Assembly: GCA_021647705.1 (NCBI GenBank)
Contig: JAKIUF010000014.1
Location: forward strand, 1,577-65,576
DNA length: 64,000 nt
Reading direction: 5' to 3'
DNA from: Gammaproteobacteria bacterium
Lineage (GTDB): Bacteria; Pseudomonadota; Gammaproteobacteria; SZUA-152
The position numbers and the translations under genes were made by a program. Each line of letters starts with the position of its first letter. The stretch's first letter is position 1. Below the pieces are notes generated by a model, which was given only the letters and a program-made list of their open reading frames with translations, made no database searches and was not told the origin of the DNA. Positions 14,564 to 64,000 of the stretch are shown piece by piece.

Positions 14564-14673
14564 CCTGGAAAAATTAATTGAGGATGGATTTTTGTGAAAC
14601 CAGTGTTGCTTTATTTGCATAGGTAAACGGGGTTCTAACAAACACAATGCTTTGCAATATTCCATAGCGGTGG

Positions 14674-15699: not shown

Positions 15700-15710
15700 G
15701 TTTGTGACCT

Positions 15711-17000
15711 TTAGTTTGTCGAGTAAGGTGAATGCAGAATGTCATTGACGCGTTCCAACATAGCTTGTATATCCTGAGGCCAATTGGGCTTGTGGTGTCT
15801 AAAAGATTTATGGGTCACCGCAAACAACGCAGTCGCTATGTGATAATGCAGTGTTTGCGTCACCTGTTGCTGGGCGGTGAATTGATAGCCTTCGATGAAT
15901 GCATCAATCAGTAATTCAGTCTGGCTAGGTGCTATTTTTCCTTTATGCTCGTACTTGAATAGGCATGCGATGAATAAACCTAGATCCTCTATCGGGTTGC
16001 CGCAGACGTTTTCATCATGGTCGATAATCGCGACTTGACCTTGATCCAGCAAAACGATTTGACTCGGGGAGAAATCACCATGTATGCGCTGCGTAACGGG
16101 CACCTCTTGCAACAGTTTTTGGCCGATGCGGGTGGCAAGGTCTTGGGCAAATGCAGCCAGTGGTGGGTGAAGCAGAGCAATGGTGGTTGCAACAGTATTT
16201 AATTTGTTGACTTTCATGCTGAGTGTTCGCTGTTTCAAACCGTCGGTTGCTAGGGTGTGAAATTCAGCCAGTGCAGCACCGATGGCGTATAGAGAAGATG
16301 CAGCCGTCGAGGCAACGATCGTTTCAGTATCCACCAATCGTCCAGGGAACCATTCGAATAACAGGCTTTGGTGACGTTGTGATCGTCCCAAGATACGGGG
16401 TGTTCGTAATCGAGCGGTGGTGGGACTATCGATCACATTAGCCACTGCTGACGAATGATAATCGCGTTCACGATAATGTTTCAATAATGCGCTAGTGCCG
16501 TGTTCGAAGTGGACGCGGCCGACGTAGCGTCGTTGCGGTTTATACGCCAGGGTTTTGATATCTCCCGAAATATTGCCTAACGAAGCTTCAACGTTAGCAG
16601 GCAATAAATTTCTCATGATAGCTTGCCGGTTATCAGGATTCATCAACGATGCGAGAGAGGTCAGTTTGCTGTCTCCTGGAAAGATGGAAAGCAACACTTG
16701 ACTCTGTAGCTCGATGTGGTGATTACCGCTGACTATAGGCAACTTGCTCCAGCGTTTATCATTATAAGCTGTCGCATGGACTAACAGCGGTGTGTTAGCA
16801 TTTGGAATTCTGACTTGGTAAGCCCCCAGACAAAATTGTGTTGGGCGATAACGGATATAGGTTAATTGTGCATTGCTCACATTCAGTTCGGGCTGAGCGC
16901 TGTTTAATGCATTAAAAAAGGCATCAGGATCCACTATTATCTTCATACCAGCAATGGTTTGATCCCTTTGTACAAGCTTGGCATTAGCGGTTGACAACAT
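15711..17000 (-). CDS. kinase-fold protein (APH-like family), paralogue of the downstream gene
   Basis: 429 aa. Catalytic loop IHGDFSPSQIVLL then AIIDHDENVCGNPIEDLGLFIA. The start overlaps the ABC gene stop by 17 nt. Confidence 0.7.
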   Translation of the reverse strand: MLSTANAKLVQRDQTIAGMKIIVDPDAFFNALNSAQPELNVSNAQLTYIRYRPTQFCLGAYQVRIPNANTPLLVHATAYNDKRWSKLPIVSGNHHIELQSQVLLSIFPGDSKLTSLASLMNPDNRQAIMRNLLPANVEASLGNISGDIKTLAYKPQRRYVGRVHFEHGTSALLKHYRERDYHSSAVANVIDSPTTARLRTPRILGRSQRHQSLLFEWFPGRLVDTETIVASTAASSLYAIGAALAEFHTLATDGLKQRTLSMKVNKLNTVATTIALLHPPLAAFAQDLATRIGQKLLQEVPVTQRIHGDFSPSQIVLLDQGQVAIIDHDENVCGNPIEDLGLFIACLFKYEHKGKIAPSQTELLIDAFIEGYQFTAQQQVTQTLHYHIATALFAVTHKSFRHHKPNWPQDIQAMLERVNDILHSPYSTN

Positions 17001-18822
17001 CGTTATGTTCCTCTTGATTTACGCCTTTGAGGCCTGCTTTGAACATGGCCGCATAGCGTTGGTTGATTTGCATGAGTTCGGCGTGAGTGCCTTGTTCAAC
17101 AATGCGTCCTTGCTCAAGCATCCATATGGCATCGGCGTGCATGGCATGGTGCAAATGATGAGTGATTTGAAAAGTGGTACGACCTTTCGATAGCCGCTTG
17201 AGTGCATCGACAACAGCGATTTCGTTTTCACGGTCAAGACCTGTAGTAGGCTCATCCAGAATCAATATCGGTGAGCGACGCATTGCGGTTCTAGCAAGAG
17301 CAATGCGTTGTCGTTGGCCATTCGAGAGCGTAGCGCCACGTTCGCTAATAACCGTGTCATAACCTTTAGGTAAGGACAGGATAAATGCATGGGCATTGGC
17401 CAATTTAGCGGCAGTTTCGATTTCTGCATCGCTGGCATCAGAGATGCCGTAAGCGATATTATTGCGCACGCTGGTGGCGAATATGCAAGAGTCTTGCAGC
17501 GCCACGCTGATCTGGCAGCGCAACGAATGCACGCTGAAGTCACGAATATCATGACCGTCAATCAGTATTCGGCCGCTTTGTGGGTCGTACAAACGTAATA
17601 ACAGGCTTATGATTGTGGATTTTCCACTACCGGAGGCACCGACCAACGCAATTTGTTGACCGGCGGTTACTGAAAAATTCAAGTCTTGAAATACTGGATG
17701 TTTGGCTTCGTAGGCAAAGTTGACCTGCTCAAAGCGGATGTGCCCCTGTAGCGGCGGCGCGGGTTGCGCATGAGGTAAGTCACAGATGTCGGGTGTCTGC
17801 TCAAAAATATCCAGCACACGTTCGCCGGAAGTGGCGGCCTTGGCAAGTCGACTGACCTGTTTGGAAAATTTTCTGACTGGTTTGAACGCGGATTTAAGAT
17901 ACGCAAGAATCACGAGTAACTCACCAGGAGAGAGTTCGTTATTTAAAACTAGACGTGCGCCAAACCATAATACCAATGCGGTGACCACACCGATAAGGAT
18001 ACCCACTGTGCCAGTCAATAAGGCACTAAATCGTTTGGCGCGTACGCTGTGGTGGAGATCTTTACGGTTGTTGACGCCAAATGAATGAGCAAATTTATTA
18101 TCGAGTGACAGTGCCTGTACGGTTTTAATCGACGCAATGGATTCGGCCGCAGTAGAGGCCATGGCACCTTCCTGATAGCGTTGTTTGCGAGATGCTTTTT
18201 GGATTCGTTTCCCAAGATAACTTGCCGCCAACCCAAACAACGGTATGACTGCCAACGCAATCAATGCCAGCTGCCAGTGTAACCAGAATATGATGCCAAA
18301 CATGCTGACCAGCAATACCAAACTGCCAAACAACGGCAGTACGGTATTGATCATCACGTCTTTGACAATGCCGAGATCATTGATGACCCGCGTAATCAGA
18401 TCCCCGCTTTTGTTTTTAGTGTGGAAACTCAGAGATAAGGTTTGTAGATGTTGGTAGAGATCCTGACGAACCGTAGCCAATACCCGGCTACCGATCAGTG
18501 CAAAACCGATGGTATGGAAATAGCTTGCCAAGGCCTTGAGTCCTGCGATAACGACCACTGCGACAGCAGATAATATCAATAATATCTCTGGGTTTGATAA
18601 TACGTCACCTGCACTAGGATCTTGAATAATGAGATGGTCGATCAAAAATTTGAGCGGCCACGGAGCAGCGATCACGAATAAAATTTCACACAGCAGCGCA
18701 ATAAACGAACCTGTCAGTAATAGCCGGTAGGCACCCATTTTAGCCGAAAAAAAATGGGCTATCCGCCATAAGCCTGGAGCACTGTCACCGAGATTTTTAC
18801 TTTTTCCCATCGCGTTTCTCAT
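16984..18822 (-). CDS. ABC exporter, fused TMD-NBD half-transporter (MsbA/NdvA-like)
   Basis: 612 aa. Six-helix N-terminal domain, Walker A GASGSGKST, signature LSNGQRQRIALART, Walker B ILILDEPTTGLD. Confidence 0.9.
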   Translation of the reverse strand: MRNAMGKSKNLGDSAPGLWRIAHFFSAKMGAYRLLLTGSFIALLCEILFVIAAPWPLKFLIDHLIIQDPSAGDVLSNPEILLILSAVAVVVIAGLKALASYFHTIGFALIGSRVLATVRQDLYQHLQTLSLSFHTKNKSGDLITRVINDLGIVKDVMINTVLPLFGSLVLLVSMFGIIFWLHWQLALIALAVIPLFGLAASYLGKRIQKASRKQRYQEGAMASTAAESIASIKTVQALSLDNKFAHSFGVNNRKDLHHSVRAKRFSALLTGTVGILIGVVTALVLWFGARLVLNNELSPGELLVILAYLKSAFKPVRKFSKQVSRLAKAATSGERVLDIFEQTPDICDLPHAQPAPPLQGHIRFEQVNFAYEAKHPVFQDLNFSVTAGQQIALVGASGSGKSTIISLLLRLYDPQSGRILIDGHDIRDFSVHSLRCQISVALQDSCIFATSVRNNIAYGISDASDAEIETAAKLANAHAFILSLPKGYDTVISERGATLSNGQRQRIALARTAMRRSPILILDEPTTGLDRENEIAVVDALKRLSKGRTTFQITHHLHHAMHADAIWMLEQGRIVEQGTHAELMQINQRYAAMFKAGLKGVNQEEHNDVVNR

Positions 18823-18847
18823 TGCAGTTTTTACACCGTATACCTCA

Positions 18848-20047
18848 CTATTTCGATGCTGCGTTCAGGCCATCCCGACTGATTTGTTGTGGTGGTTTTA
18901 CTGCGGTGATATCAGCAAGTTCAAGGATGCGCTGCGCAACCGAATGCCAGCTATGTGCCTGGACTGTATAGCGAGCCTCGTTACCCAGGGTGTGGCGCAG
19001 CGTTGGGTTTTCCAAGAGCTGCTCCAATGCTTCAGCTAAAGCCACAGGCTCGCCGGGAGGACACAATATGCCGTTACGACCATGTTGGATCAACAAAGCA
19101 AGCTGGCCAATGCGACTGGCAATAACAGGCAAGCCTGCTGCCATATATTCCAATACTTTTAACGGTGAGAAATAAAAATCCGGATTGTCAGGATAGGGTG
19201 CGACAGCAACATCCATTGAAGCCAGCAGCGCAGGTATTTGGTCAGGCACCACTGCACCGGTAAAGTAGGCGCTTTCGGTGAGGCCATGGGATTGCAGTGC
19301 GCTTTCCAGTTCGGCACGCTTGGGGCCATCACCTACGATTAGCAACCGAGCTCTGGAGTGCTTGTGCTGCAACAGTACAAATGCGTCGATTAAACTATCA
19401 AGCCCATGCCAAGGTTTTAGCGTGCCGACAAAACCAATGATGAAAGACTGCACTGACTTGACGGCAGGCGGCCATTGAAAGCGTGCAAGATTGACACCAT
19501 TGCTAATGACGTGAACACGCTCGCAAGTTTCGCTATAACTATCCAAATAACGGGCAACTTCGGCGGATACCGCAATCAATGTTGATGCGGCAGCAAACAC
19601 ACGACGGGTGGTTTGCTCAGCCTTAATCCGGTTGACCAATTGGCGGTGACGGCTTTGTTCTTCGATCACTGGCGCATTGACTTCCAAAATACCGGGCAAT
19701 GCCTGGGTTCGGGCAAACTCCATCGCCGCAAAGCTCCAAAGTGAATAGCGTTCATACACCATCTCAAAAGGACCGGCATGTGCCAATGCTGACGTGATAT
19801 GTTTATTTAGATTGAAGGTAAATGTTTCACGTTGAGCCGGAATCGTAGAAGCATTGTCAGGCAGCTGAACAACCGTCAGACCTTTCAGGTCAGGGGGGAT
19901 TTCGCCACCCAGGCGAGGGGTAAAGAGCGTGACATCCGCTCCCTGGTTTAAAAAAGCCCGAATGACTTCCTGCACATGTATCGAACATCCCTTGCAACCG
20001 AAAACCGGCACTCCCAGATCAGCGCAAACATACGCAATTTTCATCAT
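18848..20047 (-). CDS. glycosyltransferase, GT4 (GT-B fold) family
   Basis: 399 aa. N-terminal KIAYVCADLGVPVFGCKG, and a C-terminal EX7E-type region SPLKVLEYMAAGLPVIAS. The start overlaps the upstream gene stop (20044-20047). Confidence 0.85.
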   Translation of the reverse strand: MMKIAYVCADLGVPVFGCKGCSIHVQEVIRAFLNQGADVTLFTPRLGGEIPPDLKGLTVVQLPDNASTIPAQRETFTFNLNKHITSALAHAGPFEMVYERYSLWSFAAMEFARTQALPGILEVNAPVIEEQSRHRQLVNRIKAEQTTRRVFAAASTLIAVSAEVARYLDSYSETCERVHVISNGVNLARFQWPPAVKSVQSFIIGFVGTLKPWHGLDSLIDAFVLLQHKHSRARLLIVGDGPKRAELESALQSHGLTESAYFTGAVVPDQIPALLASMDVAVAPYPDNPDFYFSPLKVLEYMAAGLPVIASRIGQLALLIQHGRNGILCPPGEPVALAEALEQLLENPTLRHTLGNEARYTVQAHSWHSVAQRILELADITAVKPPQQISRDGLNAASK

Positions 20048-21294
20048 CCAGCCTTTTTGTTTTTCAGCACGTTATTGGATGTGGCGGTGTCGAACACTGA
20101 ACGTAAAGCCGCCGTGTTTTGATCAATATCGAAAGCCTGTTCGATCAAGCGGCGTGCGTGCTGTGCAAGCCGTGTACGTTCCTGCGAATGGAGCAACAAA
20201 TGCGCCAATGCATCTGTGAGGGCAGCAACGTCTTTTTGCGGTACGATAAGACCAGAGTGATTGTGCTTGATGGCTTCCGGAATACCGGTGACATCAGTAG
20301 AAATACACGGTACACCCAAAGCCATAGCTTCGAGCAACACGGTAGGCAAACCATCACGGTTGCCATCTAAGCCGACAACACACGGTGCGGCAAATACTGC
20401 GGTTTGTTGCAAACAGGCGATGACTTCTTTTTGTGGCAACGGCCCAAGAGTTTTAACCTTGTTTTGCAAACCACGCTGATGAATATCCGCAACGAGCGTA
20501 TCCTGCAATGGACCACCCCCTATAATCTGACATTCAAAATCGATATTACGCTTATGCAATTCAGCACAGGCAGCGATTAAATCACAGAAGCCTTTTTTTT
20601 CGATCAAACGGCCAACGGCAACAATACGAGGCGGTCGATGATGAGGATCGGAATACGGCAAGCGAAGTAAATCGAGGCCATTGTAGATACGCTGAACCTT
20701 GCTTGCAGAATGCCCGAATCTGTTTTGTAGAAAATCTACATTGTAATTGCTGACAGTAATGACCGATGTAGCATCCGAGATTTTTTTCTGCAAATCGTGA
20801 TGTTGCACACTTTCATGGAAAATGTCTTTGGCATGGGCGGTAAAAGAATAGGTGAGTCCAGCAAACAATGCGGCTAAACGAGCCACGGTCGTTGCCGACG
20901 TAGCGAAATGGGCATGCAAGTGTTCAATACCTTTTTCGCGTGCCTGCAAAGCAAGTAACGCCGCCTGATAAACATCACGAGCAACTTCATACTGTGCAGC
21001 GTCGAGACCGGTTACCCAGTCTGGTAGACTTTTGATCGCAGCCATAAGCTCGCTCCAGAATTCACTGACGCTGAGCGCACTCGGTGCAGGCAGGTAGGTG
21101 ATGGGTGCGCGCACTTTTGCGATGTTATCCTGAAAATGCGTATCGTTGGATGGGCGTAAAGCAAAAATGTCTAATGAGAGCCCCGCTTTCTCATGAGCAA
21201 GAATTTCATTAACGATGAATGTTTCTGAGTAGCGCGGATAACGTTTTACGACATAACCGATTCGCGGCAGGTAAGAGCAGGGAATCATAATCAC
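20044..21294 (-). CDS. glycosyltransferase, GT4 (GT-B fold) family
   Basis: 416 aa. RIGYVVKRYPRYSETFIVNEI at the N-terminus; GLPTVLLEAMALGVPCISTDVTGIPE in the C-terminal half. Confidence 0.85.
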   Translation of the reverse strand: MIMIPCSYLPRIGYVVKRYPRYSETFIVNEILAHEKAGLSLDIFALRPSNDTHFQDNIAKVRAPITYLPAPSALSVSEFWSELMAAIKSLPDWVTGLDAAQYEVARDVYQAALLALQAREKGIEHLHAHFATSATTVARLAALFAGLTYSFTAHAKDIFHESVQHHDLQKKISDATSVITVSNYNVDFLQNRFGHSASKVQRIYNGLDLLRLPYSDPHHRPPRIVAVGRLIEKKGFCDLIAACAELHKRNIDFECQIIGGGPLQDTLVADIHQRGLQNKVKTLGPLPQKEVIACLQQTAVFAAPCVVGLDGNRDGLPTVLLEAMALGVPCISTDVTGIPEAIKHNHSGLIVPQKDVAALTDALAHLLLHSQERTRLAQHARRLIEQAFDIDQNTAALRSVFDTATSNNVLKNKKAG

Positions 21295-21307
21295 GGACTC
21301 CTATGAA

Positions 21308-22567
21308 TTATTGGGTACATTGGCAAACTTCAGTGATCAAGCCAGGCAAACGGGACAAACCACCAAAATCCAGTTGGGCATGTACTTCAGGAGTCGTGGG
21401 ATAACGAGTGGCATGCGCTATCCATAGTGAGAGCCCCTCCGGACTTACATGCTCTGGAAGAATGAGATCAATCACACCCAGGGCTTTAAGTCGTTCGGCA
21501 CGCAGCAGTTGTTCCCGACGGGGCTTAATGCGAGGAACAATCAGCGCACGTTTCTCGAATGAGAGTATTTCTGAAACGACATTGTAACCCCCCATGGCGA
21601 CCACACAGTTGGCTTGCTGCAGCAAGTGTGTTGGTTCGTTGAGAAACTCAAGCACCTTCAGGTCAGTCCGAATGGCGGCCATGCGGTGGAGTGCGGCTTT
21701 CGTTTCTGGGGGCATGAATGGCCCGGTGACGATAACGCCAAACATGTTCACAGGCAGTATAGCCTGTGCAAATGCCTCAGTGAGGCATGCACCATCCTGC
21801 CCACCGCCCACCATACATAAGACGAAGCGTCCGTCAGGAATACCGAGTTCAGCGCGACTCGGTTTTATGGTATTCTCCTGATGCTCTGTAAAACGAATGC
21901 GGCGGTCAAAATAACCGGTGTAACTCACCTTATCCGCTATGTCGTTACTCATACTGTATTCACGAACAGCATCATAAACATTGGGGTCGCCATAAATCCA
22001 CACTTTATTGTAAAAATGGTGAATCGCTTCCCTGTTACCGGCTTTATGCCATTCGGCCTTCACTTGCTCAGGTTCATCAAGCACGTCCCGCAAACCGAGT
22101 ACACAACGTGTGCGGCCGCGTCGGCGAATGTCCCACAAGGTCGCATCCAACTCGCCGAGTGCGCCGCGTGGCACATTGTCAACAATGAACACATCCGGAT
22201 CGAAGGCCGTAATTGAAGCACGTATCATCTGCGCGCGGATTTTTTTTAAATCTTCCACCGGAATATTCAACGAGCGTGACAGGTAACAACCGTTACTTTT
22301 TTTGCGTAAAGACGGCAATGTGACACAGTCAACTCCCGGTGGCATTTGAGCAGCGCTTGCCTGACGAGCACCAGTGATCATTAAAATATTGGTTTGCAAC
22401 TCGGAACAGGACAAGGCCTGACTGATCATCAGATTACGCCGCATGTGCCCCATTCCCATCGTATCGTGGGAATATAAGGCAATGCGCAGTCTGTGCGGTT
22501 CAGTGCGGGCAAACTGCGGCGGTTTTTTCAGGAATTCCCGGGGGAATGGCAAGAATGTTTGAGTCAT
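21308..22567 (-). CDS. glycosyltransferase-like protein (GT-B, COG4671/GT28-like; tentative)
   Basis: Start placed at MTQTFLPF (ATG 22567-22565, preceded by TAAGGA), 32 codons inside the tracked ORF. G-loop YSHDTMGMGHMRRN. The C-terminal half VVAMGGYNVVSEILSFEKRALIVPR resembles MurG-type sugar-donor domains. Confidence 0.6.
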   Translation of the reverse strand: MTQTFLPFPREFLKKPPQFARTEPHRLRIALYSHDTMGMGHMRRNLMISQALSCSELQTNILMITGARQASAAQMPPGVDCVTLPSLRKKSNGCYLSRSLNIPVEDLKKIRAQMIRASITAFDPDVFIVDNVPRGALGELDATLWDIRRRGRTRCVLGLRDVLDEPEQVKAEWHKAGNREAIHHFYNKVWIYGDPNVYDAVREYSMSNDIADKVSYTGYFDRRIRFTEHQENTIKPSRAELGIPDGRFVLCMVGGGQDGACLTEAFAQAILPVNMFGVIVTGPFMPPETKAALHRMAAIRTDLKVLEFLNEPTHLLQQANCVVAMGGYNVVSEILSFEKRALIVPRIKPRREQLLRAERLKALGVIDLILPEHVSPEGLSLWIAHATRYPTTPEVHAQLDFGGLSRLPGLITEVCQCTQ

Positions 22568-22934
22568 GGCAGTATCCTTACGCCGCATGTTGTTGAATAT
22601 AACGAACACGGTCACTGTTTCATTCCCGTTTGACCAAACTGTAACCTTCTGCCGTGAGCTCATAATGAACTTGTCATGAAGTATTCATAAACTTGAGATT
22701 AAAACTAAGGTTTCACGCTTTTTAACGACGCTATAAATTTTGTTCACTCGTTTTTGTTCAAAACAAAGTTTCAATCCACGCGCCCATGAAGGCGCGACAT
22801 TTACTTTTAGCCACACCGCCATCCAACAGGGCCTGCAAAAGTATTATTGAGGCTTGTTCAGGCTGACCCGGAGTCAGTTTTTGAAAACCTTCATATCAAT
22901 CACACATAAATGAATAAGGTGCGTACACGTTCCT

Positions 22935-51308: not shown

Positions 51309-51827
51309 CTATTCTTTTTTTAATAAAGCCTGGGAAACGTCAATCGCTTTTTCAAGATAATTATCATATAGACCAGGGGTTTGATAGCCTATAATTTTTG
51401 GCACCAGCTCCTTTCCCGTTGCATCCACCAGCTGCAAGGTCGGCACAACTTCCACGCCACGATCAATCGCAAAATCTTCGGCATTACGCTCACGTCCACT
51501 GAAATCACGCAAGGTGTCGTATTTATCCATCATCACTTTGCGCAAGATAACGCGTTGGGGATCAATTCCCGCGAGGCGCATAGGACCCAGTACTTCTGTT
51601 TCCAGGCGTTTGCAGTAATGGCAATCTTCGGAGGCAAACATCAGCAGGATGGGGACACCCTTTTCGCTCGACAGTTTGCTTAAGGCGGTCATGTCCAGAC
51701 TGATGACGAGTCGCAACTTTTCCGACACGAACAGGTCTTCGTCTTCGTCCATTTCCACGGGGGTTACTCCGGCTGCATACCCAGCAGCCAGATTAAACAG
51801 TAGAAAAAAAGTCAGCAGGTATCGCAT
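51309..51827 (-). CDS. periplasmic thioredoxin-fold protein (CxxC)
   Basis: Start placed at the signal peptide MRYLLTFFLLFNLAAGYAAG (ATG 51827). Redox motif FASEDCHYCKRLE. Confidence 0.75.
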   Translation of the reverse strand: MRYLLTFFLLFNLAAGYAAGVTPVEMDEDEDLFVSEKLRLVISLDMTALSKLSSEKGVPILLMFASEDCHYCKRLETEVLGPMRLAGIDPQRVILRKVMMDKYDTLRDFSGRERNAEDFAIDRGVEVVPTLQLVDATGKELVPKIIGYQTPGLYDNYLEKAIDVSQALLKKE

Positions 51828-51913
51828 TGTAAATACCTTGAAACCACTCCCGTTCACTTTTGTCGTATTCCGGTGTAAACAGGGATAACCGGAGGCGTTA
51901 CTTTCGTCTTTCG

Positions 51914-53920
51914 TCAACCCAGCATATCACGCAAATTTGCCAGATGAGCACGACCACGCTCCTGACGTTCTTCAGGATCAACCTGCTCACCCCGGCCTTC
52001 CCACACCAAATCATCCTCGGGCAATTCACTCAAAAACCGACTGGGTTCGCAGTCTACGGTTTCGCCATGTTTGCGACGACGGGCGGACATGGTGAAGGTC
52101 AGTGTTTTTTGCGCTCGGGTAATCCCGACATACGCGAGCCGCCGCTCTTCTTCTATATCGTCTGCTTCCAGACTGGCATGATGGGGCAGCAGGTTTTCTT
52201 CCATACCCACTACAAACACATGGGGAAATTCCAGCCCTTTGGCGGCATGCAACGTCATCAGTGAAATACAGTCATCACGTTTTTCATCTTCGTTGCGTTC
52301 GAGGATATCCATTAACGTCATCTGTGCTACCAACTCACCGAGCCCGGTGTCACCCTCACCTTTTTCCGCCATGCGTGTCAGCCAGTCCACCAGCTCATGC
52401 ACATTGGCCATGCGCCGCTCAGCACCTTTGGGGTCGTTACAGGTGTCCAGTAGCCAGTCTTCATAACGGATATCGCTGATCACTTCCTTGACCGCCGCCA
52501 CCGGATCACCTCGCTCGGCCAACTCTGCTTTCGCCGCCAGCCAGCGAACAAATTCCCGCACCCGGTTCAAAGCGCGCTCATTCAGCTGCATTTCCAGTCC
52601 CAGCTCATCGCAGGCGGCATACAGACTGATACCCCTCTCGCCTGCATATGTGGCTATTTTCTCCAGCGTGGCCGGGCCGATCTCGCGCCGTGGCGTATTG
52701 ACCACACGCACGAAGGCATTATCATCTTCCGGATTCACCAGCAGGCGCAGGTAAGCCATAATGTCTTTCACTTCCTGGTAGGCGAAAAACGAAGTGCCAC
52801 CGGAAATTTGATACGGCAACTGGTTTTCGCGCAGCCCCTTTTCAAACAATCGTGACTGGTGATTACCACGATACAAAATGGCGTAATCACTAAAATGACC
52901 ACCGTTCTGGAATTTGTGCGCCAACAGCCGCGACACCACTTGTTCGGCTTCATGATCTTCATTACGCGCCTGCACCACTTTGATGGGGTCGCCATAACCC
53001 AGCTCACTCCACAGGCGTTTTTCAAATACATGGGGGTTGTTGTCAATAAGCTGGTTGGCAGCCTTCAAAATGCGCCCTGTGGAACGGTAATTCTGCTCCA
53101 GCTTGATAACTTTCAGCGTGGGGAAATCCTGCGACAACAGCGCCAGATTTTCTGGCTGTGCGCCGCGCCAAGCATAAATGGACTGGTCGTCGTCACCCAC
53201 CACCGTCAATGCGCCGCGCACCCCCACCAGACTCTGCACCAGGCGGTACTGGGCACTATTGGTATCCTGATATTCATCCACCAGCAGATAACGAATACGA
53301 TTCTGCCAGCGCTCCAGTACCTCGGGAAACTCGCTAAACAATTGTGCAGGCAGGCTAATGAGGTCGTCAAAATCCACCGCATTGTAGGCCCGAAGATGAT
53401 GATTGTATTGCTCATACAATATCGAAGCAGCGGTTAATTTGGGATCACCGTTGGCCAAAGCCTGTGCCTGCGCGGAACTGACCATGTCATTTTTCCAGTG
53501 CGAAATTTGCCACTGCATCGACTGCGCCTCATCGTCAGCATCAAAGGCCCGACGCATTAATTCCTTAATCAGCGCCTGTGAGTCCTGCGAGTCATAAATG
53601 GAAAACCCCTTGCGTAACCCCAGCGCCTTGCCGTCACGTTTGAGAATATTCAACCCCAGGTTGTGAAAGGTGGAAACACGCATGCCACGACGTTCAGCGG
53701 CCTTCAATTCACCCTTAAGCCGTGCCCGCATCTCGCGTGAGGCCTTATTGGTAAAAGTCACCGCCGTAATATGGTGGCCTTTGATATCGCAGTTTTGTAC
53801 CAAATGCACGATTTTTTGCGTAATCACACGCGTCTTGCCGGACCCGGCTCCGGCCAGCACCAGTAACGGGCCATCAATGTAACGCACCGCCTCTTTCTGG
53901 CGGGGATTGAGTTGGGACAT
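51914..53920 (-). CDS. rep: ATP-dependent DNA helicase Rep
   Basis: 668 aa. The N-terminus LNPRQKEAVRYIDGPLLVLAGAGSGKTRVITQKIVHL is colinear with E. coli Rep. UvrD/Rep motifs are present throughout, and the length fits Rep rather than UvrD. Confidence 0.93.
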   Translation of the reverse strand: MSQLNPRQKEAVRYIDGPLLVLAGAGSGKTRVITQKIVHLVQNCDIKGHHITAVTFTNKASREMRARLKGELKAAERRGMRVSTFHNLGLNILKRDGKALGLRKGFSIYDSQDSQALIKELMRRAFDADDEAQSMQWQISHWKNDMVSSAQAQALANGDPKLTAASILYEQYNHHLRAYNAVDFDDLISLPAQLFSEFPEVLERWQNRIRYLLVDEYQDTNSAQYRLVQSLVGVRGALTVVGDDDQSIYAWRGAQPENLALLSQDFPTLKVIKLEQNYRSTGRILKAANQLIDNNPHVFEKRLWSELGYGDPIKVVQARNEDHEAEQVVSRLLAHKFQNGGHFSDYAILYRGNHQSRLFEKGLRENQLPYQISGGTSFFAYQEVKDIMAYLRLLVNPEDDNAFVRVVNTPRREIGPATLEKIATYAGERGISLYAACDELGLEMQLNERALNRVREFVRWLAAKAELAERGDPVAAVKEVISDIRYEDWLLDTCNDPKGAERRMANVHELVDWLTRMAEKGEGDTGLGELVAQMTLMDILERNEDEKRDDCISLMTLHAAKGLEFPHVFVVGMEENLLPHHASLEADDIEEERRLAYVGITRAQKTLTFTMSARRRKHGETVDCEPSRFLSELPEDDLVWEGRGEQVDPEERQERGRAHLANLRDMLG

Positions 53921-54267: not shown

Positions 54268-57200
54268 TTGCGTATTCGTCATATCAGCACAACCGGTTTT
54301 GTTCTCGTGGCAGCATTGACCAGCCACTTCGTTCACGCCGAAGGGAGTTATCAGGTCGGTCTGAATCAACCCTTTGTTGAATATGGCGCAACCGTTTTTG
54401 GTAATTCACACGATGAGCCTCTGCATGTCGATATTCGCACCGCAGGTGAAGTAATCAACATATCGTTGTGCGGGTATGCAGATACACACGATATCCAGGC
54501 GGAAGTTTATGATCCGCTCGGCAGTTTGGTCGAAACTTTCACGCATAATCACGGCAATGTCTTTTGTAATGATCCCTTTACAGCACCGCTTTCGCTTAAT
54601 GGCCCCCTGGGCGATCAAGGGCCATTCCAGCACACCACCACCACGACAGGCGCATATTCGATCCGCCTCTACAACACAGCTCTTTCTGGCGGCAGCAGCA
54701 GTGAAAGACAGTTAATTCGCCGCTTTGACATCACCGTTACACCTGACAACTCAACGCTCCCGGACCCCTCGGCACAGGCCGGGCGACTCTGGTCCAGCGC
54801 ATGGAGTTTCTGGACAGGATCATTTGCTGAAAATGAAGCCACGGATGCCAATTATTTTCCTCTGGTACCGGGTGGTCGTGCTAATACTCATTATGTTTGG
54901 AAGCTGGATCTGAATAATTTTTCGGGCAACCTGTACACCCTTATCGCAAATGACGTAGGTGTAACAGCACCCGGATCAGGCTATAGCGTTCCTGAAAGCG
55001 GGAACAGTGTTACACCCAAGTATCCCATTTACCTGTCCTATCCCGTCACTGCAAACCCTCGCCCCACCGATCCACCGGAAATCAGCGGGCTGACGTTTAC
55101 AGATGATGCAGGAATAGATTATGGCATTTCACCGGGTACAACACCCAGCGTGCAGGACTCCGGTGTTTTTGAATTCACAACAGATGTGGACGGCACCTAC
55201 GCGCTGGTTATCGATACCAATGACGACGGACAGTTTGGCGCTAACGACACATTGCTACTGGGCAGTGTGGTACCAGGACCGAACCAAATCAACTGGGATG
55301 GAACAGACGAAAATGGTAATACACTGTCACCTGCCATCTACGATGCCCAGCTTCGGGTCAGCCTGGGTGAATACCACTTTGTTACCCGTGATGCCGAAAC
55401 CAGTGGTGGCACTGAAGATGGTCTGACCATTTTCCAGGCAAACGCTGACGGCAGTACCGATAACACCCAGGTTTACTGGGACGATGAAACACTACTTTCG
55501 CCTCCCTCTGGCACCACAACCCTGCCCAACGGTCAGTCGTCTGCAACATCTGCTGGCCACCACACCTGGGGAGACTTCAGCGGAGCAGGTATCGGTAATG
55601 AACGCTATATTGATACTTATGTATATGGCTTAACCGTCAATGCAACAATACAAGCCGCCATCGTACTGGATGACGTCCCCTTAAGCGGTAGCGACGGCAG
55701 TATCGCTTTTTCCGGCACCAGCCTGCCCGGCGATAGCATCCTCATTACCGTCACTGATCCCGACCTCAATACAAACAATACCATCACGCAAAGTGTTGTT
55801 GTACAGGTCAGCAATGACAATACCGGAGAACAGGAGCAGGTATTGCTCACTGAAACCGGTCCCGACACCGCTGTTTTTTCCAACACCATCACCACCCAGC
55901 CGGGAGCCTCGGCAGGCACCAACAACGACGGTGTACTTAACACCCAAAGCGGCCAAAATCTCACCGTCACTTATTACGATCAACTCCACTCAACCAGCAC
56001 CGGCGGCACCTCGCGAACCGCACAAATTCAGGTGGAATTTGATACAGACAACGACGGCATTGCCAACACACTCGACCTCGACAGCGATAACGACGGCATT
56101 CCCGACAGTATTGAAGGCGACGCCAGTGTAGACAGCGATGGTGACGGTATCCCTGACTACCGCGATCTCGACAGCGATAACGATGGCCTGTTTGACCTCA
56201 CGGAATCCGGCATCAGCAACCCTGCTGCGCTTGACACTGATAACGATGGCCGCATTGATAACAGCAACACCGTTGGGGCTAACGGCCTCGCCGACATCGC
56301 AGAAACCAGCGCCGACAGCGGCAGCATTAATTACACCATCGCCGATACCGACACGGATGGCGTCGCCGATTACCGTGATCTCGACAGCGACAACGATGGT
56401 CTGTTCGACATAGCCGAAGCCGGTGGCAGTGATGCCGACAATGACGGCATCCTCGGCAGCGGCGTACCCGGCGTCGATGCCAATGGTCTCGTCAGTGGCG
56501 CGGGTCTGAGCCCTGTCGATACCGATACCGACGGCATCGCCGACTTCCGTGATCTCGACAGCGATGGCGATGGTCTGTTTGACGTAACCGAAGCCGGTGG
56601 CAGCGACCCCGACAACGACGGCATTCTCGGCAGCGGCACACCCGCTGTCGGTGGCAATGGCCTTGCCAGCGGCGCAGGTCTGGCCCTTATCGATACCGAC
56701 AACGACGGTACGCCTGACTATATCGACCTCGATGCGGATAACGACGGTACCCCTGATGCCAGCGATGTTTTCCCCACCAACGGCGGTGAAAGTGCTGACA
56801 ACGACGGTGATGGCGTTGGCAACAACGCTGATCTTGATGCCGACAATGATGGCATTCCTGACAGCATCGAAGGTGACGACAGTGTAGATACCGATAGTGA
56901 TGGCACACCCGACTATCTGGATCGCGACAGTGATGGTGACGGCATCAATGACATCATCGAAGCCGGTGGCATAGATACCAATAATGACGGTTTGGTCGAT
57001 GGTTTCACCGATGCCAACAGCGATGGTCTCGACGATACCCTGGCCACCAATCCATTACCGGTTACCGACAGCGACAACGACGGCACACCTGACTACCGGG
57101 ACAACCGCGACAGTGATAACGATGGCATTCTCGACACACTCGACCTCGACAGTGATAACGACGGCATTCCCGACAGTATCGAAGGCGACGCCAATGTAGA

Positions 57201-60200
57201 CAGCGATGGTGACGGCATTGCCGATTTACTCGATCTCGACAGTGATAACGATGGTCTGTTCGACCTTGTTGAATCCGGCATCAGTAACCCTGCCTCGCTT
57301 GATGGTGACAACAACGGCCGCATTGATGCTACCTCCCCTGTTGGCAATAATGGCCTCGCCGACGCGATAGAGACCGCTGTGGACTCCGGATTGGCGGACT
57401 ATAACAACGATGGTAATCCCGACAGCCCGCGCGACACCGACAGCGATGGCATCGCAGATTACCGTGACCGTGATTCCGACAACGATGGTATTCCCGATGT
57501 TACCGAAACCGGTGGCAATGACCCGGATGGAGACGGCATCCTTGGCAGTGGTGTGCCCACTGTTGATGCCAATGGTCTTGCCAGCGGGGCTGGCCTGAGC
57601 CCGATTGACACGGATAGTGACGGCACTCCTGATCAGCGTGACCCTGACAGTGATGGTGACGGCAGTAACGACATCATTGAAGCTGGCGGCACTGACACCA
57701 ACGGCGACGGCCAGGTGGATAACTTCACCGATGCCAATAATGACGGCTTCGACGATACCCTTGCTGCCACCCCCCTGCCACTGCCCGACAGTGACGGTGA
57801 CAGCATTACCAACAACCTCGATCTCGACAGTGATAACGACGGCATTCCTGACCTTATAGAAGGCAGTAACACCAACGTAGACACCGACAACGATGGCATT
57901 GCTGATTACCTCGACCTAGACAGTGACAACGATGGCCTGTTCGACCTCATAGAATCCGGCATCAACGATCCTGCCAGTCTTGACACCGACAACAATGGCC
58001 GCATCGACGACAGCAACACAGTGGGAACAAACGGTCTTGCCGACATCGCTGAAACCAATGCTGACAGTGGTGTACTTGACTACACCGTTGCCGATACCGA
58101 TGGCGATGGCATTGAGAACTTCCGCGACCTTGACAGTGACAACGATGGCATTCCTGATCTCATCGAAGGTAGTGGCACTGGTGTGGATACCGATAACGAT
58201 GGCATCCCCGACTACCGCGACCTCGACAGTGACAATGACAGCCTGTTCGACCTCACAGAATCCGGTATCAGCGATCCCGCCAGTCTCGACACCGACAACG
58301 ATGGCCGCATTGATGCCGGCAATCCCGTGGGTGCAAATGGTCTTGCCGACATCGTCGAAACCGCTACCGACAGTGGCACACTCGACTACACCGTTGCCGA
58401 CACCGATAGCAACACCCTTGAGGACTTCCGTGATCTCGACAGCGATGGCGACGGTCTGTTCGATGTGATCGAAGCAGGCGGCAGCGATGCTGATAACGAT
58501 GGCATTACGGGTAGCGGTGTACCCAGCGTCGATGCCAATGGTCTCGCCATGGGTGCGGGCCTGATCCCAGCCGACAGCGACGGTGATGGCACATCTGATC
58601 AACGTGATCTCGACGCTGATAACGACGGCACACCCGATGCCAACGATGCCTTCCCCACCGACGACAGCGAAATTGCCGATGGCGATGGCGACGGCATTGG
58701 CAACAACGCCGACCTTGATGCCGACAACGATGGTATTCCGGACAGCATTGAAGGTGACGACAGCGTCGATTCAGACGGTGATGGCACACCGGATTATCTC
58801 GACCGTGACAGCGATGGCGACGGTATCGATGACATCATCGAAGCCGGTGGCACTGATGCCGACAACGATAGTCAGGTGGATGATTTCACCGACACCAACA
58901 ATGATGGCCTCGATGACAACCTCGCCATAACACCTCTGCCAATGACCGACAGCGATGGCGACGGTACCCCGGATTACCGGGATAACGCCGATAGCGATGC
59001 TGATGGTGTCGTCAACAGCCTCGACCTCGATAGTGACAATGACGGTATCCCTGACAGCATCGAAGGTAATGCCAGCATCGACACCGACGGAGACGGCATC
59101 GCCGACTACCTCGATCTCGACAGTGACAACGATGGTATTTCTGACTTGATCGAATCCGGCATCAGTGACCCTGCCACCCTCGATGGTGACAACGATGGCC
59201 GCATTGACGCCAGCAACTCCGTTGGTGATAACGGTCTTGCTGACGCCGTGGAAACCGCAACAGATTCAGGACAGGCGGATTACAATGGTGACGGCAATGC
59301 CGATGCACCGCGTGATACCGACAGCGACGGCACACCGGATTACCGCGACCTCGACAGTGACAACGATGGTATCAACGACATCATCGAAGCAGGCGGTAGC
59401 GATACCAATGCTGACGGCAGAATTGACAATCCCGTGGATACCAACGGAGACGGCCTCCACGACGATCTCGTCAACAGCCCTCTGCCGGATATCCACACCG
59501 ACGCCGACAGCGACGGCATCCCTGACTTCCGGGATAACGACGATCTCGACAACGATGGTATTGCCGACATATCTGATCTCGACAGCGATAACGATGGCAT
59601 TCCTGATCTCATCGAGGGCAGTGATACCCGCGTGGATACCGACAACGACGGCATCCCCGACTACCGTGATCTCGACAGCGACAACGACGGTCTGTTCGAC
59701 CTGACGGAATCCGGCATCAGCAATCCCGCCAGTCTCGACAGCGACAACGATGGTCGCATTGATACCGGCAACACTGTCGGCAGCAATGGTCTCGCCAATG
59801 TGGTGGAAACCGGCGTGGACAGCGGTAGCATCAACTACGTCGTGGCTGATACCGACAGTGATGGTATCGACGACTACCGCGACCGCGATGCCGACAATGA
59901 TGGCATTCCTGATGTCACCGAGTCTGGCGGTAACGACCCTAATGGCGATGGTGTCCTGGGTAACGGCACACCGGTCGTGGATGACAATGGCCTTATCACC
60001 GGTACTGGCTTGACCCCGGTGGACTCTGACAGTGATGGTATCCCTGACTACCGTGACCTCGATAGCGACGGCGATAACATCACCGACATCATCGAAGCGG
60101 GTGGCAGCGACGGCAACAGCGATGGTCAGGTCGATAACGCCACCGATAACAACAATGATGGGCTCGCCGACAATATTGTCAACAACCCTCTGCCACTGCC

Positions 60201-61296
60201 CGACAGTGACGGCAATGGCATCCCGGACTACCGTGACAACGGTGATTTCGACAACGACGGCATTGCCGACACGTCCGATCTTGATACCGACAACGACGGC
60301 ATCCCTGACCTCATTGAAGGCCGTGATACCTCCGTGGATACCGACAGCGATGGCATCCCCGACTACCGCGACCTCGACAGCGACAATGACGGCCTGTTCG
60401 ATCTCGCGGAATCTGGCATCAGCAATCCCGTTAGTCTCGACACTAACAATGATGGCCGCATCGACAACAGCAACACCGTTGGCAGCAATGGCCTAGCCGA
60501 TGCAGTGGAAACCAGTGCGGATAGCGACAGCATCAACTACACGGTAGCCGATACCGATGGCGATGGTCTTGATGACTATCGCGACCTCGACAGCGACGGC
60601 GATGGTATTCCCGACGTGACGGAAGGCGACCGCAGTGATGGTGACAATGACGGTCGTATCGGCACAGGCAATCCGCCGATTGATTTCAATGGTGTTGCCA
60701 GTGGCAGCGGCACAACTGTCCCTGACAGCGACAACGACGGCGTGCCCGATTACCGTGATCTCGACAGCGACAACGACAGCATTACGGATGTTGTGGAAGC
60801 CGGAGGCACAGACAGCGATGGCGACGCCCGCCAGGATGCGACAGGAGACAGCAACAACGATGGCCTCGATGATGCCGTACAAGCCACGCCTCTACCGCTT
60901 TACGACACCGACAGCGATAACACACCAGACTACCGCGACATTGACAGCGACAACGATGGCATCCCGGATCTGTCAGAAACAGGTGCCATTGACCGTGATC
61001 GCGATGGCCGTGTGGATGATTTCAACGACGCCAATAATGATGGCCTGGACGATAGTCTGAGCGGCACAGTCCCCGACCTGCCCGACAGCAATGGCAATGG
61101 CATCGCAGACTACCGTGACCCTGCCACAGCCAGCGAGCCAAAAACCGTACGCACCGGCCTGGATGGACTGGGCGGCTGCACACTCAACCCTGCGGCTGCC
61201 TTCGACCCCACGCTGCCCCTGCTGCTGCTCATCGCCCTGCTTTCCCTCTGGCGCAGAAAATCTGTATCAGACAAACACCTGCAACCCGGAAAATAA
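54268..61296 (+). CDS. giant secreted calcium-binding surface protein with thrombospondin type-3 repeats and a C-terminal sorting-signal-like tail
   Basis: 2342 aa. TTG start 10 nt after AAGGA, with no nearby in-frame ATG. Sec signal peptide (GFVLVAALTSHFVHA-EG). About 590-aa non-repeat N-terminal region, then about 1700 aa of DxDxDGxxDxxD repeats. The tail is GLGGC...LPLLLLIALLSLWRRK. Confidence 0.9.
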   Translation: MRIRHISTTGFVLVAALTSHFVHAEGSYQVGLNQPFVEYGATVFGNSHDEPLHVDIRTAGEVINISLCGYADTHDIQAEVYDPLGSLVETFTHNHGNVFCNDPFTAPLSLNGPLGDQGPFQHTTTTTGAYSIRLYNTALSGGSSSERQLIRRFDITVTPDNSTLPDPSAQAGRLWSSAWSFWTGSFAENEATDANYFPLVPGGRANTHYVWKLDLNNFSGNLYTLIANDVGVTAPGSGYSVPESGNSVTPKYPIYLSYPVTANPRPTDPPEISGLTFTDDAGIDYGISPGTTPSVQDSGVFEFTTDVDGTYALVIDTNDDGQFGANDTLLLGSVVPGPNQINWDGTDENGNTLSPAIYDAQLRVSLGEYHFVTRDAETSGGTEDGLTIFQANADGSTDNTQVYWDDETLLSPPSGTTTLPNGQSSATSAGHHTWGDFSGAGIGNERYIDTYVYGLTVNATIQAAIVLDDVPLSGSDGSIAFSGTSLPGDSILITVTDPDLNTNNTITQSVVVQVSNDNTGEQEQVLLTETGPDTAVFSNTITTQPGASAGTNNDGVLNTQSGQNLTVTYYDQLHSTSTGGTSRTAQIQVEFDTDNDGIANTLDLDSDNDGIPDSIEGDASVDSDGDGIPDYRDLDSDNDGLFDLTESGISNPAALDTDNDGRIDNSNTVGANGLADIAETSADSGSINYTIADTDTDGVADYRDLDSDNDGLFDIAEAGGSDADNDGILGSGVPGVDANGLVSGAGLSPVDTDTDGIADFRDLDSDGDGLFDVTEAGGSDPDNDGILGSGTPAVGGNGLASGAGLALIDTDNDGTPDYIDLDADNDGTPDASDVFPTNGGESADNDGDGVGNNADLDADNDGIPDSIEGDDSVDTDSDGTPDYLDRDSDGDGINDIIEAGGIDTNNDGLVDGFTDANSDGLDDTLATNPLPVTDSDNDGTPDYRDNRDSDNDGILDTLDLDSDNDGIPDSIEGDANVDSDGDGIADLLDLDSDNDGLFDLVESGISNPASLDGDNNGRIDATSPVGNNGLADAIETAVDSGLADYNNDGNPDSPRDTDSDGIADYRDRDSDNDGIPDVTETGGNDPDGDGILGSGVPTVDANGLASGAGLSPIDTDSDGTPDQRDPDSDGDGSNDIIEAGGTDTNGDGQVDNFTDANNDGFDDTLAATPLPLPDSDGDSITNNLDLDSDNDGIPDLIEGSNTNVDTDNDGIADYLDLDSDNDGLFDLIESGINDPASLDTDNNGRIDDSNTVGTNGLADIAETNADSGVLDYTVADTDGDGIENFRDLDSDNDGIPDLIEGSGTGVDTDNDGIPDYRDLDSDNDSLFDLTESGISDPASLDTDNDGRIDAGNPVGANGLADIVETATDSGTLDYTVADTDSNTLEDFRDLDSDGDGLFDVIEAGGSDADNDGITGSGVPSVDANGLAMGAGLIPADSDGDGTSDQRDLDADNDGTPDANDAFPTDDSEIADGDGDGIGNNADLDADNDGIPDSIEGDDSVDSDGDGTPDYLDRDSDGDGIDDIIEAGGTDADNDSQVDDFTDTNNDGLDDNLAITPLPMTDSDGDGTPDYRDNADSDADGVVNSLDLDSDNDGIPDSIEGNASIDTDGDGIADYLDLDSDNDGISDLIESGISDPATLDGDNDGRIDASNSVGDNGLADAVETATDSGQADYNGDGNADAPRDTDSDGTPDYRDLDSDNDGINDIIEAGGSDTNADGRIDNPVDTNGDGLHDDLVNSPLPDIHTDADSDGIPDFRDNDDLDNDGIADISDLDSDNDGIPDLIEGSDTRVDTDNDGIPDYRDLDSDNDGLFDLTESGISNPASLDSDNDGRIDTGNTVGSNGLANVVETGVDSGSINYVVADTDSDGIDDYRDRDADNDGIPDVTESGGNDPNGDGVLGNGTPVVDDNGLITGTGLTPVDSDSDGIPDYRDLDSDGDNITDIIEAGGSDGNSDGQVDNATDNNNDGLADNIVNNPLPLPDSDGNGIPDYRDNGDFDNDGIADTSDLDTDNDGIPDLIEGRDTSVDTDSDGIPDYRDLDSDNDGLFDLAESGISNPVSLDTNNDGRIDNSNTVGSNGLADAVETSADSDSINYTVADTDGDGLDDYRDLDSDGDGIPDVTEGDRSDGDNDGRIGTGNPPIDFNGVASGSGTTVPDSDNDGVPDYRDLDSDNDSITDVVEAGGTDSDGDARQDATGDSNNDGLDDAVQATPLPLYDTDSDNTPDYRDIDSDNDGIPDLSETGAIDRDRDGRVDDFNDANNDGLDDSLSGTVPDLPDSNGNGIADYRDPATASEPKTVRTGLDGLGGCTLNPAAAFDPTLPLLLLIALLSLWRRKSVSDKHLQPGK
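56041..61120 (+). repeat. coding tandem-repeat region (TSP3 Ca-binding repeats arranged in three or four larger module types)
   Basis: Module A (DLDSDNDGIPDxIEG...DLDSDNDGLFDLxESGI...GRID...NGLAD) starts near 56081, 57150, 57828, 58134, 59029, 59581 and 60283. It is interleaved with EAGG-containing modules at irregular spacing. Confidence 0.85.
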
Positions 61297-62890: not shown

Positions 62891-63346
62891 GTGATGAATG
62901 TCCACGCACCCAAACAACTGAAAAGCCTGTTTCAAGACTCCCTATTCTGGCTGGCCCTGCTGGCTGGCCCAGCGACATGGACAGCACTCTATTTCTGGTT
63001 ACCTTACTTACCTGTCCAAAGTGAACATCTGAATCAATGGTGGACACTGCTGCTTTTGGCAGGCCTGTACCCACTACTGGAAGAATGGTTATTTCGTGGT
63101 TTGTTACAACCACAACTGTTAACCTTTCGCCCGTTGCGAACCCGAATTCTAGGCATCAGTAACGCCAATCTGCTAACCAGTCTACTATTCGCTGCGGCCC
63201 ACCTGTTTGTTCAGTCTCCCCTTTGGGCTGCCGCAGTTATTGTGCCTTCACTGGTCTTCGGTGCCTTTCGCGACCGTTATCAAAGTGTCGTTCCCGCCAT
63301 TATCCTGCACAGTTTTTACAATCTTGGTTATTTTCTTGTTTTCTGA
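62891..63346 (+). CDS. CPBP-family (CAAX protease / Abi, PF02517-type) glutamic intramembrane endopeptidase
   Basis: 151 aa (GTG 62891 or ATG 62894). About four TM helices and all three family motifs: LLEEWLFRGLL (EExxxR), FAAAHL (FxxxH), ILHSFYNL (HxxxN). Confidence 0.8.
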   Translation: MMNVHAPKQLKSLFQDSLFWLALLAGPATWTALYFWLPYLPVQSEHLNQWWTLLLLAGLYPLLEEWLFRGLLQPQLLTFRPLRTRILGISNANLLTSLLFAAAHLFVQSPLWAAAVIVPSLVFGAFRDRYQSVVPAIILHSFYNLGYFLVF

Positions 63347-63547
63347 AAACTACCCCTTCCTCTGCTTCGATAGCCGAAAAGCTCACGCCGTCTATTCCCG
63401 ACGCACCCTTATTTGACCGGGCAAGGTTATCGGCTACAATACGACCGCCCAATAAACCTTGTCGTACAAAGCATAAAAACAATAGCCCGGTTCCTGCTTA
63501 GCCCTGGTATATAGCTTTCTCTGTAATGTCCTGATCTTTGTCGGAGT
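63345..63547 (-). pseudogene. N-terminal remnant of a group II intron reverse transcriptase/maturase (frameshifted, truncated)
   Basis: The minus strand reads KIRTLQRKLYTRAKQEPGYCFYALYDKVYW, then after a frameshift IVADNLARSNKGASGIDGVSFSAIEAEEGVV. This matches the IEP N-terminus pattern LQxKLYxKAKxEPxxRFYxLYDK...NKGAxGxDG. Similarity stops where the CPBP gene ends. Confidence 0.5.
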
Positions 63548-63554
63548 GACTAAG

Positions 63555-64000
63555 TTAAATCGCCGCTTCCCCAAAATCATAAAAAGCGATATCCGAGCCG
63601 AAGCCTTTCTCCAGTAATACATCACGTAATTTTTCGTGTACCAGAATGGCATTCGTAGATTCCGCCAGACGAAACATCTGAATGCCTTTGGTGGTGGTCT
63701 CATCCACCACCAGTTCATCAAAGTCCACGTCAATCAGTGGAATGCCGTCATGCGCCGTAGCAACGGATTTGTCCATGTCGGCAGCGGCAATCAATCCCAG
63801 CATGTTAACTACTTTGTAGTGGGTGTGTATTGCGCCATCATCCGGGTCATGAATAGCCACATCGTAAAGGTCAAAATCATAGACACCACACTCCTTGAGT
63901 GCGGCAATAAAATCATCGCGCCACAGCGGGGGATTGGTATAAATAATCGCTCCCATGTACTGGTCTTCAGCAGGGGAGCGTGGCTCGTAAGGGTCAAGTG
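63555..64000 (-). CDS. Imm11-like (DUF1629) immunity protein, possibly 5'-truncated by the window edge
   Basis: The frame stays open from the tracked Met (63956) to base 64000 (LDPYEPRSPAEDQY-MGAII...). The C-terminal pattern IQMFRLAESTNAILVHEKLRDVLLEKGFGSDIAFYDF resembles the Imm11 consensus (FRL...iiVSEefk..le..g.tG.eF) from memory. Confidence 0.45.
   Translation of the reverse strand, partial: LDPYEPRSPAEDQYMGAIIYTNPPLWRDDFIAALKECGVYDFDLYDVAIHDPDDGAIHTHYKVVNMLGLIAAADMDKSVATAHDGIPLIDVDFDELVVDETTTKGIQMFRLAESTNAILVHEKLRDVLLEKGFGSDIAFYDFGEAAI

Follow-up and report, generated by a model that had tools for sequence, protein, structure and literature searches.

Three-gene locus encoding a giant TSP3-repeat protein with a JDVT-CTERM-type tail, an OmpA-like protein and the protease MrtJ in a gammaproteobacterial contig

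We analyzed a 64,000-nt stretch (hereafter, the window) of contig JAKIUF010000014.1 from a Gammaproteobacteria bacterium. Our focus was on three consecutive genes on its plus strand, which encode a large secreted protein with a distinctive C-terminal tail (hereafter, the client), an OmpA-like protein (the partner), and MrtJ, a minimal glutamic intramembrane protease of the CPBP (Rce1-like) type (Table 1). The client stop codon and the partner gene are separated by 8 nt, and the partner gene and mrtJ by 89 nt, so that mrtJ starts 1.6 kb downstream of the client on the same strand. Within this cluster, we saw no plus-strand terminator-like site; the number of sites returned by the scan for promoters and terminators did not exceed that in shuffled sequence. 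Asp makes up 20.9% of the client, in which we counted roughly 70 DxDxDG calcium-loop (TSP3-like) repeats. At its N-terminus, the stretch MRIRHISTTGFVLVAALTSHFVHA, read by eye, is a probable Sec signal peptide that would be cut after VHA and before EG.

Translation of window positions 61156–61296 (plus strand) gives GLDGLGGCTLNPAAAFDPTLPLLLLIALLSLWRRKSVSDKHLQPGK and then the stop codon, which is the exact C-terminus of the open reading frame (ORF) at 54268–61296. A first-pass annotation of this DNA had described these 46 residues as a tripartite tail, GLDGLGGC-TLNPAAAFDPT-LPLLLLIALLSLW-RRK-SVSDKHLQPGK, with the only Cys of the repeat-bearing region, a hydrophobic helix of about 13 residues, and a basic cluster. 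The client does contain three Cys residues (68, 100, and 2304), and none other than Cys2304 lies beyond residue 100. The hydrophobic segment and the RRK after it were likewise borne out, but the helix is longer than proposed: the membrane segment of the family model considered below runs through a conserved DP, from about P2308 to W2328 (~21 residues), and the earlier parsing that left TLNPAAAFDPT outside the helix does not hold. Hydropathy is maximal at residues 2309–2327 (Kyte-Doolittle 19-residue mean, 1.93), followed by the RRK cluster.

Table 1. Window coordinates of the three genes and of the sequence elements of the client.
Feature	Position	Strand	Basis or remark
Client gene, 2342-aa secreted protein with JDVT-CTERM tail	54268..61296	+	ORF translation
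Putative Sec signal peptide MRIRHISTTGFVLVAALTSHFVHA	54268..54339	+	Inferred from sequence
Signature TGLDGLGGC, residues 2296–2304	61153..61179	+	HMM match and conservation
Cys2304 codon, proposed lipidation site, proposed cleavage just after	61177–61179	+	Inferred from MYXO-CTERM model
Leu-rich transmembrane segment PAAAFDPTLPLLLLIALLSLW, residues 2308–2328	61189..61251	+	Hydropathy
Class-defining D2313-P2314 inside the Leu-rich segment	61204–61209	+	+9/+10 from Cys2304
Basic cluster RRK, R2329-R2330-K2331	61252–61260	+	Translation
RRK, then 11-residue cytoplasmic end SVSDKHLQPGK and stop codon	61252..61296	+	End unconserved among relatives
OmpA-like partner, 498 aa	61305..62801	+	Pfam OMP_b-brl, TSP_3, and OmpA matches
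mrtJ, minimal CPBP (Rce1-like) glutamic intramembrane protease, 151 aa from GTG	62891..63346	+	NF033192, Pfam

We scanned the 46-residue tail against NCBIfam at a permissive threshold (E ≤ 10). The tail matched NF033191, the JDVT-CTERM model, with 47.1 bits (curated cut-off, 27; E = 1.6e-12), and its residues 6–35 aligned to positions 4–33 of the 35 model positions. Such an E value on a curated 35-column hidden Markov model (HMM) places the tail pattern far beyond chance. The JDVT-CTERM/MrtJ system was described by Haft (bioRxiv 10.1101/2023.06.07.544157); its tail is defined by one invariant Cys and a nearly invariant DP nine residues on, inside a Leu-rich helix, and further traits are a cluster of Arg residues, a cognate CPBP protease encoded nearby, and, in most cases, a single client in each genome (bioRxiv 10.1101/2023.06.07.544157). 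The window tail has the single Cys, the D at +9, the Leu-rich helix, and the basic cluster, and it belongs to this family. An HMM built from collected tails found one match only in the six-frame translation of the 64-kb window, in agreement with the published rule that a genome usually has a single client.

The first-pass annotation had called the class unclear and possibly new. In line with that idea, the tail lacks PEP, LPXTG, and clean GlyGly-Ser motifs, its signature is a lineage-specific, extended TGLxG[LV]GGC, and its cytoplasmic end is longer than the 35-column model covers. However, it exceeds the NF033191 cut-off by 20 bits and has the DP at +9, the enzyme encoded nearby passes NF033192, and the published description fits. 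With both cut-offs passed, the suggestion of an unclear class is refuted, and that the tail represents a new class of Cys-containing sorting signal, distinct from the catalogued ones, is extremely improbable. Standard annotation pipelines would name it as a member of a catalogued class. The annotation had also assumed that a known class would point to a rhombosortase or exosortase, whereas this known class is itself CPBP-linked.

In the same scan, two further models gave weak matches, TIGR03382 (MYXO-CTERM type; 13.4 bits, cut-off 15.85) and TIGR03901 (MYXO-CTERM; 10.9 bits, cut-off 20), and no match was obtained with the PEP-CTERM, GlyGly-CTERM, LPXTG, or other CTERM models. The tail could accordingly be read as a MYXO-CTERM or other myxosortase-type signal served by an MrtX-, MrtC-, or MrtP-type enzyme, all the more as the protease also matches the MrtP, MrtC, and MrtX models and TSP3-type MYXO-CTERM proteins exist (MtsC model). 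But both MYXO-CTERM matches are below their cut-offs, the protease reaches 46–68 bits on the MrtP, MrtC, and MrtX models, far below the cut-offs of 180–250, and passes the MrtJ model, and the tail has a single Cys and a DP in the helix, which MYXO-CTERM lacks (bioRxiv 10.1101/2023.06.07.544157). We regard a myxosortase-type signal as very unlikely.

The assignment of the tail to JDVT-CTERM is matched by that of the protease. Its sequence scored 105.3 bits on NF033192 (MrtJ, equivalog; cut-off, 75) and 61.9 bits on Pfam PF02517 (Rce1-like). The three CPBP motifs are intact, namely E64-E65-W-L-F-R69 (EExxxR), F100-A-A-A-H104 (FxxxH), and H140-S-F-Y-N144 (HxxxN), and E64, E65, R69, F100, H104, H140, and N144 were invariant in the 12–13 aligned homologues (40–76% identity). 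The listed GTG start (62891) directly precedes an ATG (62894); because 150-aa homologues begin with MNxxxPKQLK there, the real start is probably the ATG, giving a protein of 150 aa. A protein search returned 170 MrtJ relatives at E ≤ 1e-10, and NCBI records name several homologues “JDVT-CTERM system glutamic-type intramembrane protease” or “...CAAX-type protease”.

We collected nine genome loci with MrtJ relatives, five of which (L002, L003, L004, L006, and L007) were long enough upstream to show the client. All five, which come from Chromatiales/Gammaproteobacteria metagenome-assembled genomes (MAGs) and, in the case of L007, from a Nitrospirota MAG, encode a large protein with this type of tail at its end; they hold four distinct tails (those of L004 and L006 are identical), scoring 31–47 bits on NF033191. 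Tails of the same type were found in L010 and L015, which were reached via more distant proteases (40.0 and 44.3 bits, respectively). The tail is thus kept in relatives: TGLxG[LV]GGC before the Cys is common to L002, L003, L004, L006, L007, L010, and L015, and the C-to-D offset is always 9, as computed in the window and five related tails and as read off directly for L010 and L015. The part after the basic cluster varies in sequence and in length (9–26 residues). The order client-OmpA-MrtJ is also kept in these same loci, and tail and mrtJ are linked in them as well as in L017 and L021. The N-terminal part of the client differs: the N-terminal domains of the window and L007 clients are unrelated, and those of the L010 client (Big_13-like) and the L015 client (FG-GAP with TSP3_bac) are unlike that of the window.

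This co-occurrence also bears on whether the tail is processed at all. It could instead be a permanent, uncleaved C-terminal membrane anchor, with the CPBP gene serving another role, e.g., bacteriocin immunity; no processing of a JDVT tail has been shown experimentally, other roles of CPBP proteins are known (bioRxiv 10.1101/2023.06.07.544157), and one gene separates client and protease in the window. Nevertheless, the tail occurs together with the protease in more than one phylum and on unrelated cargo domains, and the conservation of residues within the helix (DP and LP) points to recognition inside the membrane. Furthermore, retention in the periplasm would make little sense for an Asp-rich calcium-repeat fibre of 2342 aa that has an OmpA partner, and the sister system is cleaved (PMC11980579). 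A permanent anchor is unlikely on these grounds.

We consider it highly probable that the tail is a JDVT-CTERM sorting domain and that MrtJ, encoded two genes downstream, has the TSP3-repeat protein as its dedicated client. The general reading in the first-pass annotation, a CPBP-linked, Cys-containing sorting signal thought to be lipidated and cleaved, is supported by the NF033191 and NF033192 matches. Some points weigh against our reading. Client and protease are not adjacent here, whereas they are adjacent in 16 of the 17 published JDVT cases (bioRxiv 10.1101/2023.06.07.544157). The NF033191 HMM leaves the 11 residues after the basic cluster uncovered. Finally, lipidation, the cleavage site, and the route through type II secretion (T2SS) are extrapolated from MYXO-CTERM/MrtX and Rce1, and no JDVT-CTERM/MrtJ pair has been examined experimentally.

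The protein encoded between client and mrtJ has an outer-membrane beta-barrel at its N-terminus and an OmpA peptidoglycan-binding domain at its C-terminus; it also contains six Cys-paired TSP3 repeats. No NCBIfam model reached its cut-off on this partner; the best was PA1041 (181 of 250 bits). The TraB model (NF033763) gave 176.2 bits (E = 6e-52), and the PdsO model (TIGR03789) gave 90.8 bits, below its cut-off of 152.2. Because the TraB match is far below the 700-bit cut-off, we read the partner as an analogue or distant relative of TraB rather than an orthologue, and the shared architecture as a resemblance. Along its full length, the partner shares 46% identity with the Nitrospirota orthologue (L007), and its barrel domain is 45–46% identical to those of L010 and L015. 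The barrel is conserved although the clients share the tail only (L010) or the tail and TSP3-type repeats only (L007 and L015).

Judged by this architecture, the partner is probably structural and would fasten the surface fibre to outer membrane and peptidoglycan, the part that TraB plays for TraA. The most economical reading, which we infer from the gene pair, is a structural partnership between a surface fibre and its envelope anchor, encoded by two tightly coupled genes. More tentatively, the OmpA-like barrel protein encoded directly upstream of mrtJ may be a dedicated third component in one JDVT-CTERM sub-lineage, a possibility to which we give somewhat less than even weight, with TraB-like docking or receipt of the lipid-anchored client at the outer membrane and coupling to peptidoglycan. 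In the window, this coupling might proceed via the calcium-bound TSP3 repeats common to client and partner. OmpA is absent from the searchable text of the Haft preprint on the JDVT system (bioRxiv 10.1101/2023.06.07.544157). As a side observation, the N-terminus of the partner has an LTGC sequence; the L007 orthologue lacks its Cys, and the sequence is compatible with an ordinary signal peptide.

To place this layout, we scanned metagenome contigs with the protease alignment and classified 80 loci with the tail and partner HMMs. The client was directly adjacent to mrtJ, as in the published layout, in 26 loci; an OmpA-like gene lay directly upstream of mrtJ in 6; the client was downstream or divergent in 5; nothing was recognised in at least 2 kb upstream in 17; and the contig was too short for a verdict in 26. 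Among the 54 informative loci, the OmpA layout therefore accounts for 6 and direct adjacency for 26. The tail HMM was built from the window sub-type and may have overlooked divergent tails among the 17 unrecognised loci. The six OmpA loci comprise two with the client before the OmpA-like gene, two that run into the contig end, and two in which 10 kb hold no client. The window is a minority sub-type of the known JDVT system that recurs in several lineages.

An OmpA-MrtJ pair can persist without a linked client, because L011 (8824–10447) and L013 (8589–10468) have the pair, with the OmpA-like gene overlapping the mrtJ start, and lack a gene with the tail within 10 kb. Two loci of the metagenome scan, L049 and L094, resemble them (OmpA-MrtJ, no linked client). 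We also considered the OmpA-like protein itself as the MrtJ client and rejected this candidate; in L011 and L013 it is without a Cys/helix/Arg tail.

How the client might reach the cell surface can be modelled on better-studied systems. MrtX cleaves the MYXO-CTERM of TraA in a Cys-dependent manner, also in Escherichia coli (PMC11980579). In the working model for MrtX, the protein is exported by Sec, the tag anchors it in the inner membrane, the Cys is lipidated by a separate enzyme (Lgt has been suggested), the cut is made distal to the Cys, and transfer to the surface depends on the T2SS (PMC11980579). By analogy, the Sec system would export the client precursor via its N-terminal signal peptide, and the C-terminal helix (about residues 2308–2328) would hold it in the inner membrane with RRK on the cytoplasmic side. 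A separate enzyme would lipidate Cys2304; MrtJ would recognise the helix in the membrane, including the conserved DP, and cut just after Cys2304, removing ~38 residues. The mature client would end at the lipidated Cys2304, and type II secretion would then carry it to the cell surface. Lipidation, cleavage site, dependence on the T2SS, and what the OmpA partner does are all predicted here.

Two relatives support a link between JDVT systems and the T2SS. In Sulfuricella sp. T08 (L012, 4240–16349), mrtJ lies inside a complete T2SS operon, between gspF and gspG, and no JDVT client was seen within 10 kb of it. In L014 (1–10465), a T2SS operon (gspK, L, M, C, D, E, and F) is followed directly by an S8 peptidase gene and then mrtJ. 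The tail of this peptidase combines a poly-Gly stretch with a single Cys, a helix, and RRARRAR, is without the DP motif, and did not reach E ≤ 1e-6 on NF033191. The position of mrtJ in or directly after T2SS operons supports, for JDVT, a route shown so far only for MYXO-CTERM and GlyGly-CTERM. In the window itself, none of the 20 ORFs scanned was seen to be a T2SS, exosortase, or rhombosortase gene.

Compared with the published JDVT-CTERM/MrtJ system (bioRxiv 10.1101/2023.06.07.544157), the window has the same Gly-rich signature, one Cys, DP at +9, Leu-rich helix, and basic cluster, the same minimal CPBP protease in an operon-like cluster, and likewise a single client visible in the region searched. 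It differs in the intervening OmpA-like gene, the extended signature before the Cys, the longer unconserved cytoplasmic end, and the giant TSP3-repeat cargo. MYXO-CTERM/MrtX, from which the experimentally supported mechanism was taken, shares the tripartite Cys-containing tag and the protease superfamily, but tag and protease form separate sub-families whose models stay below cut-off here, and a myxosortase serves dozens of unlinked clients. GlyGly-CTERM/rhombosortase of Vibrio cholerae is similar in that its C-terminal tag is tripartite, its protease is an intramembrane one, the new anchor is of a lipid type, and surface display depends on the T2SS, and dedicated single-client pairs exist there too; it differs in its unrelated rhomboid serine protease and its Cys-less tag, whose models did not match the window tail at E ≤ 10.

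Two further systems resemble the locus in their OmpA-like component. In TraA/TraB of Myxococcus xanthus, a surface adhesin gene is likewise followed directly by one for a beta-barrel plus OmpA-domain protein with TSP3 repeats, and in both TraA/TraB and the fused MXAN_5598 a tagged adhesin goes together with a module of beta-barrel and OmpA domain (PMC11980579). The proteobacterial dedicated sortase system with PdsO (TIGR03789) is also a one-client sorting system with its own OmpA-like protein, but it uses a sortase and an LPXTG-type signal, and the window partner matches its model below cut-off.

With this locus, a giant calcium-repeat fibre joins the known JDVT clients. Its client-OmpA-MrtJ cassette recurs in Gammaproteobacteria and one Nitrospirota MAG and mirrors TraA/TraB of myxobacteria. 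With its one client and a protease of 150 aa, the system would offer a convenient minimal model for the Cys-type lipidation-then-cleavage mechanism, which is still unproven.

Some features of the client lie outside its tail. The N-terminal domain of ~570 residues (window 54340–56040) precedes the TSP3 repeats and is not common to the L007 Nitrospirota client. It gave no PDB sequence match at E ≤ 1 and nothing significant against Pfam, where FlgD_ig (FlgD Ig-like) matched at a sub-threshold level only. A Pfam DIPSY match on the client (37.9 bits, on no separate stretch) was taken as a low-complexity Asp/Ser artefact and set aside.

Upstream of the client, on the minus strand, lies a Rep/UvrD helicase gene (51914–53920). 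TlpA-like genes occur near some published JDVT loci (bioRxiv 10.1101/2023.06.07.544157), and we considered the thioredoxin-like gene at 51309–51917 (minus strand) as a linked component; we treated it as unlinked, with the helicase gene in between and the other strand used. Downstream, synteny with L001–L004 and L006 stops directly after mrtJ. In those relatives, the gene after mrtJ is TatD-like, its product starting with xQLIDTHCHLD, and window positions 63346–64000 are different; they include an ORF (63555–63998, minus strand) that had no Pfam match. Farther away, window positions 13127–22663 (minus strand) encode an alginate-export-type outer-membrane protein, two APH-like kinases, an ABC exporter, two group-1 glycosyltransferases, and a 451-aa protein without a Pfam match, which together look like a polysaccharide or glycolipid export cluster.

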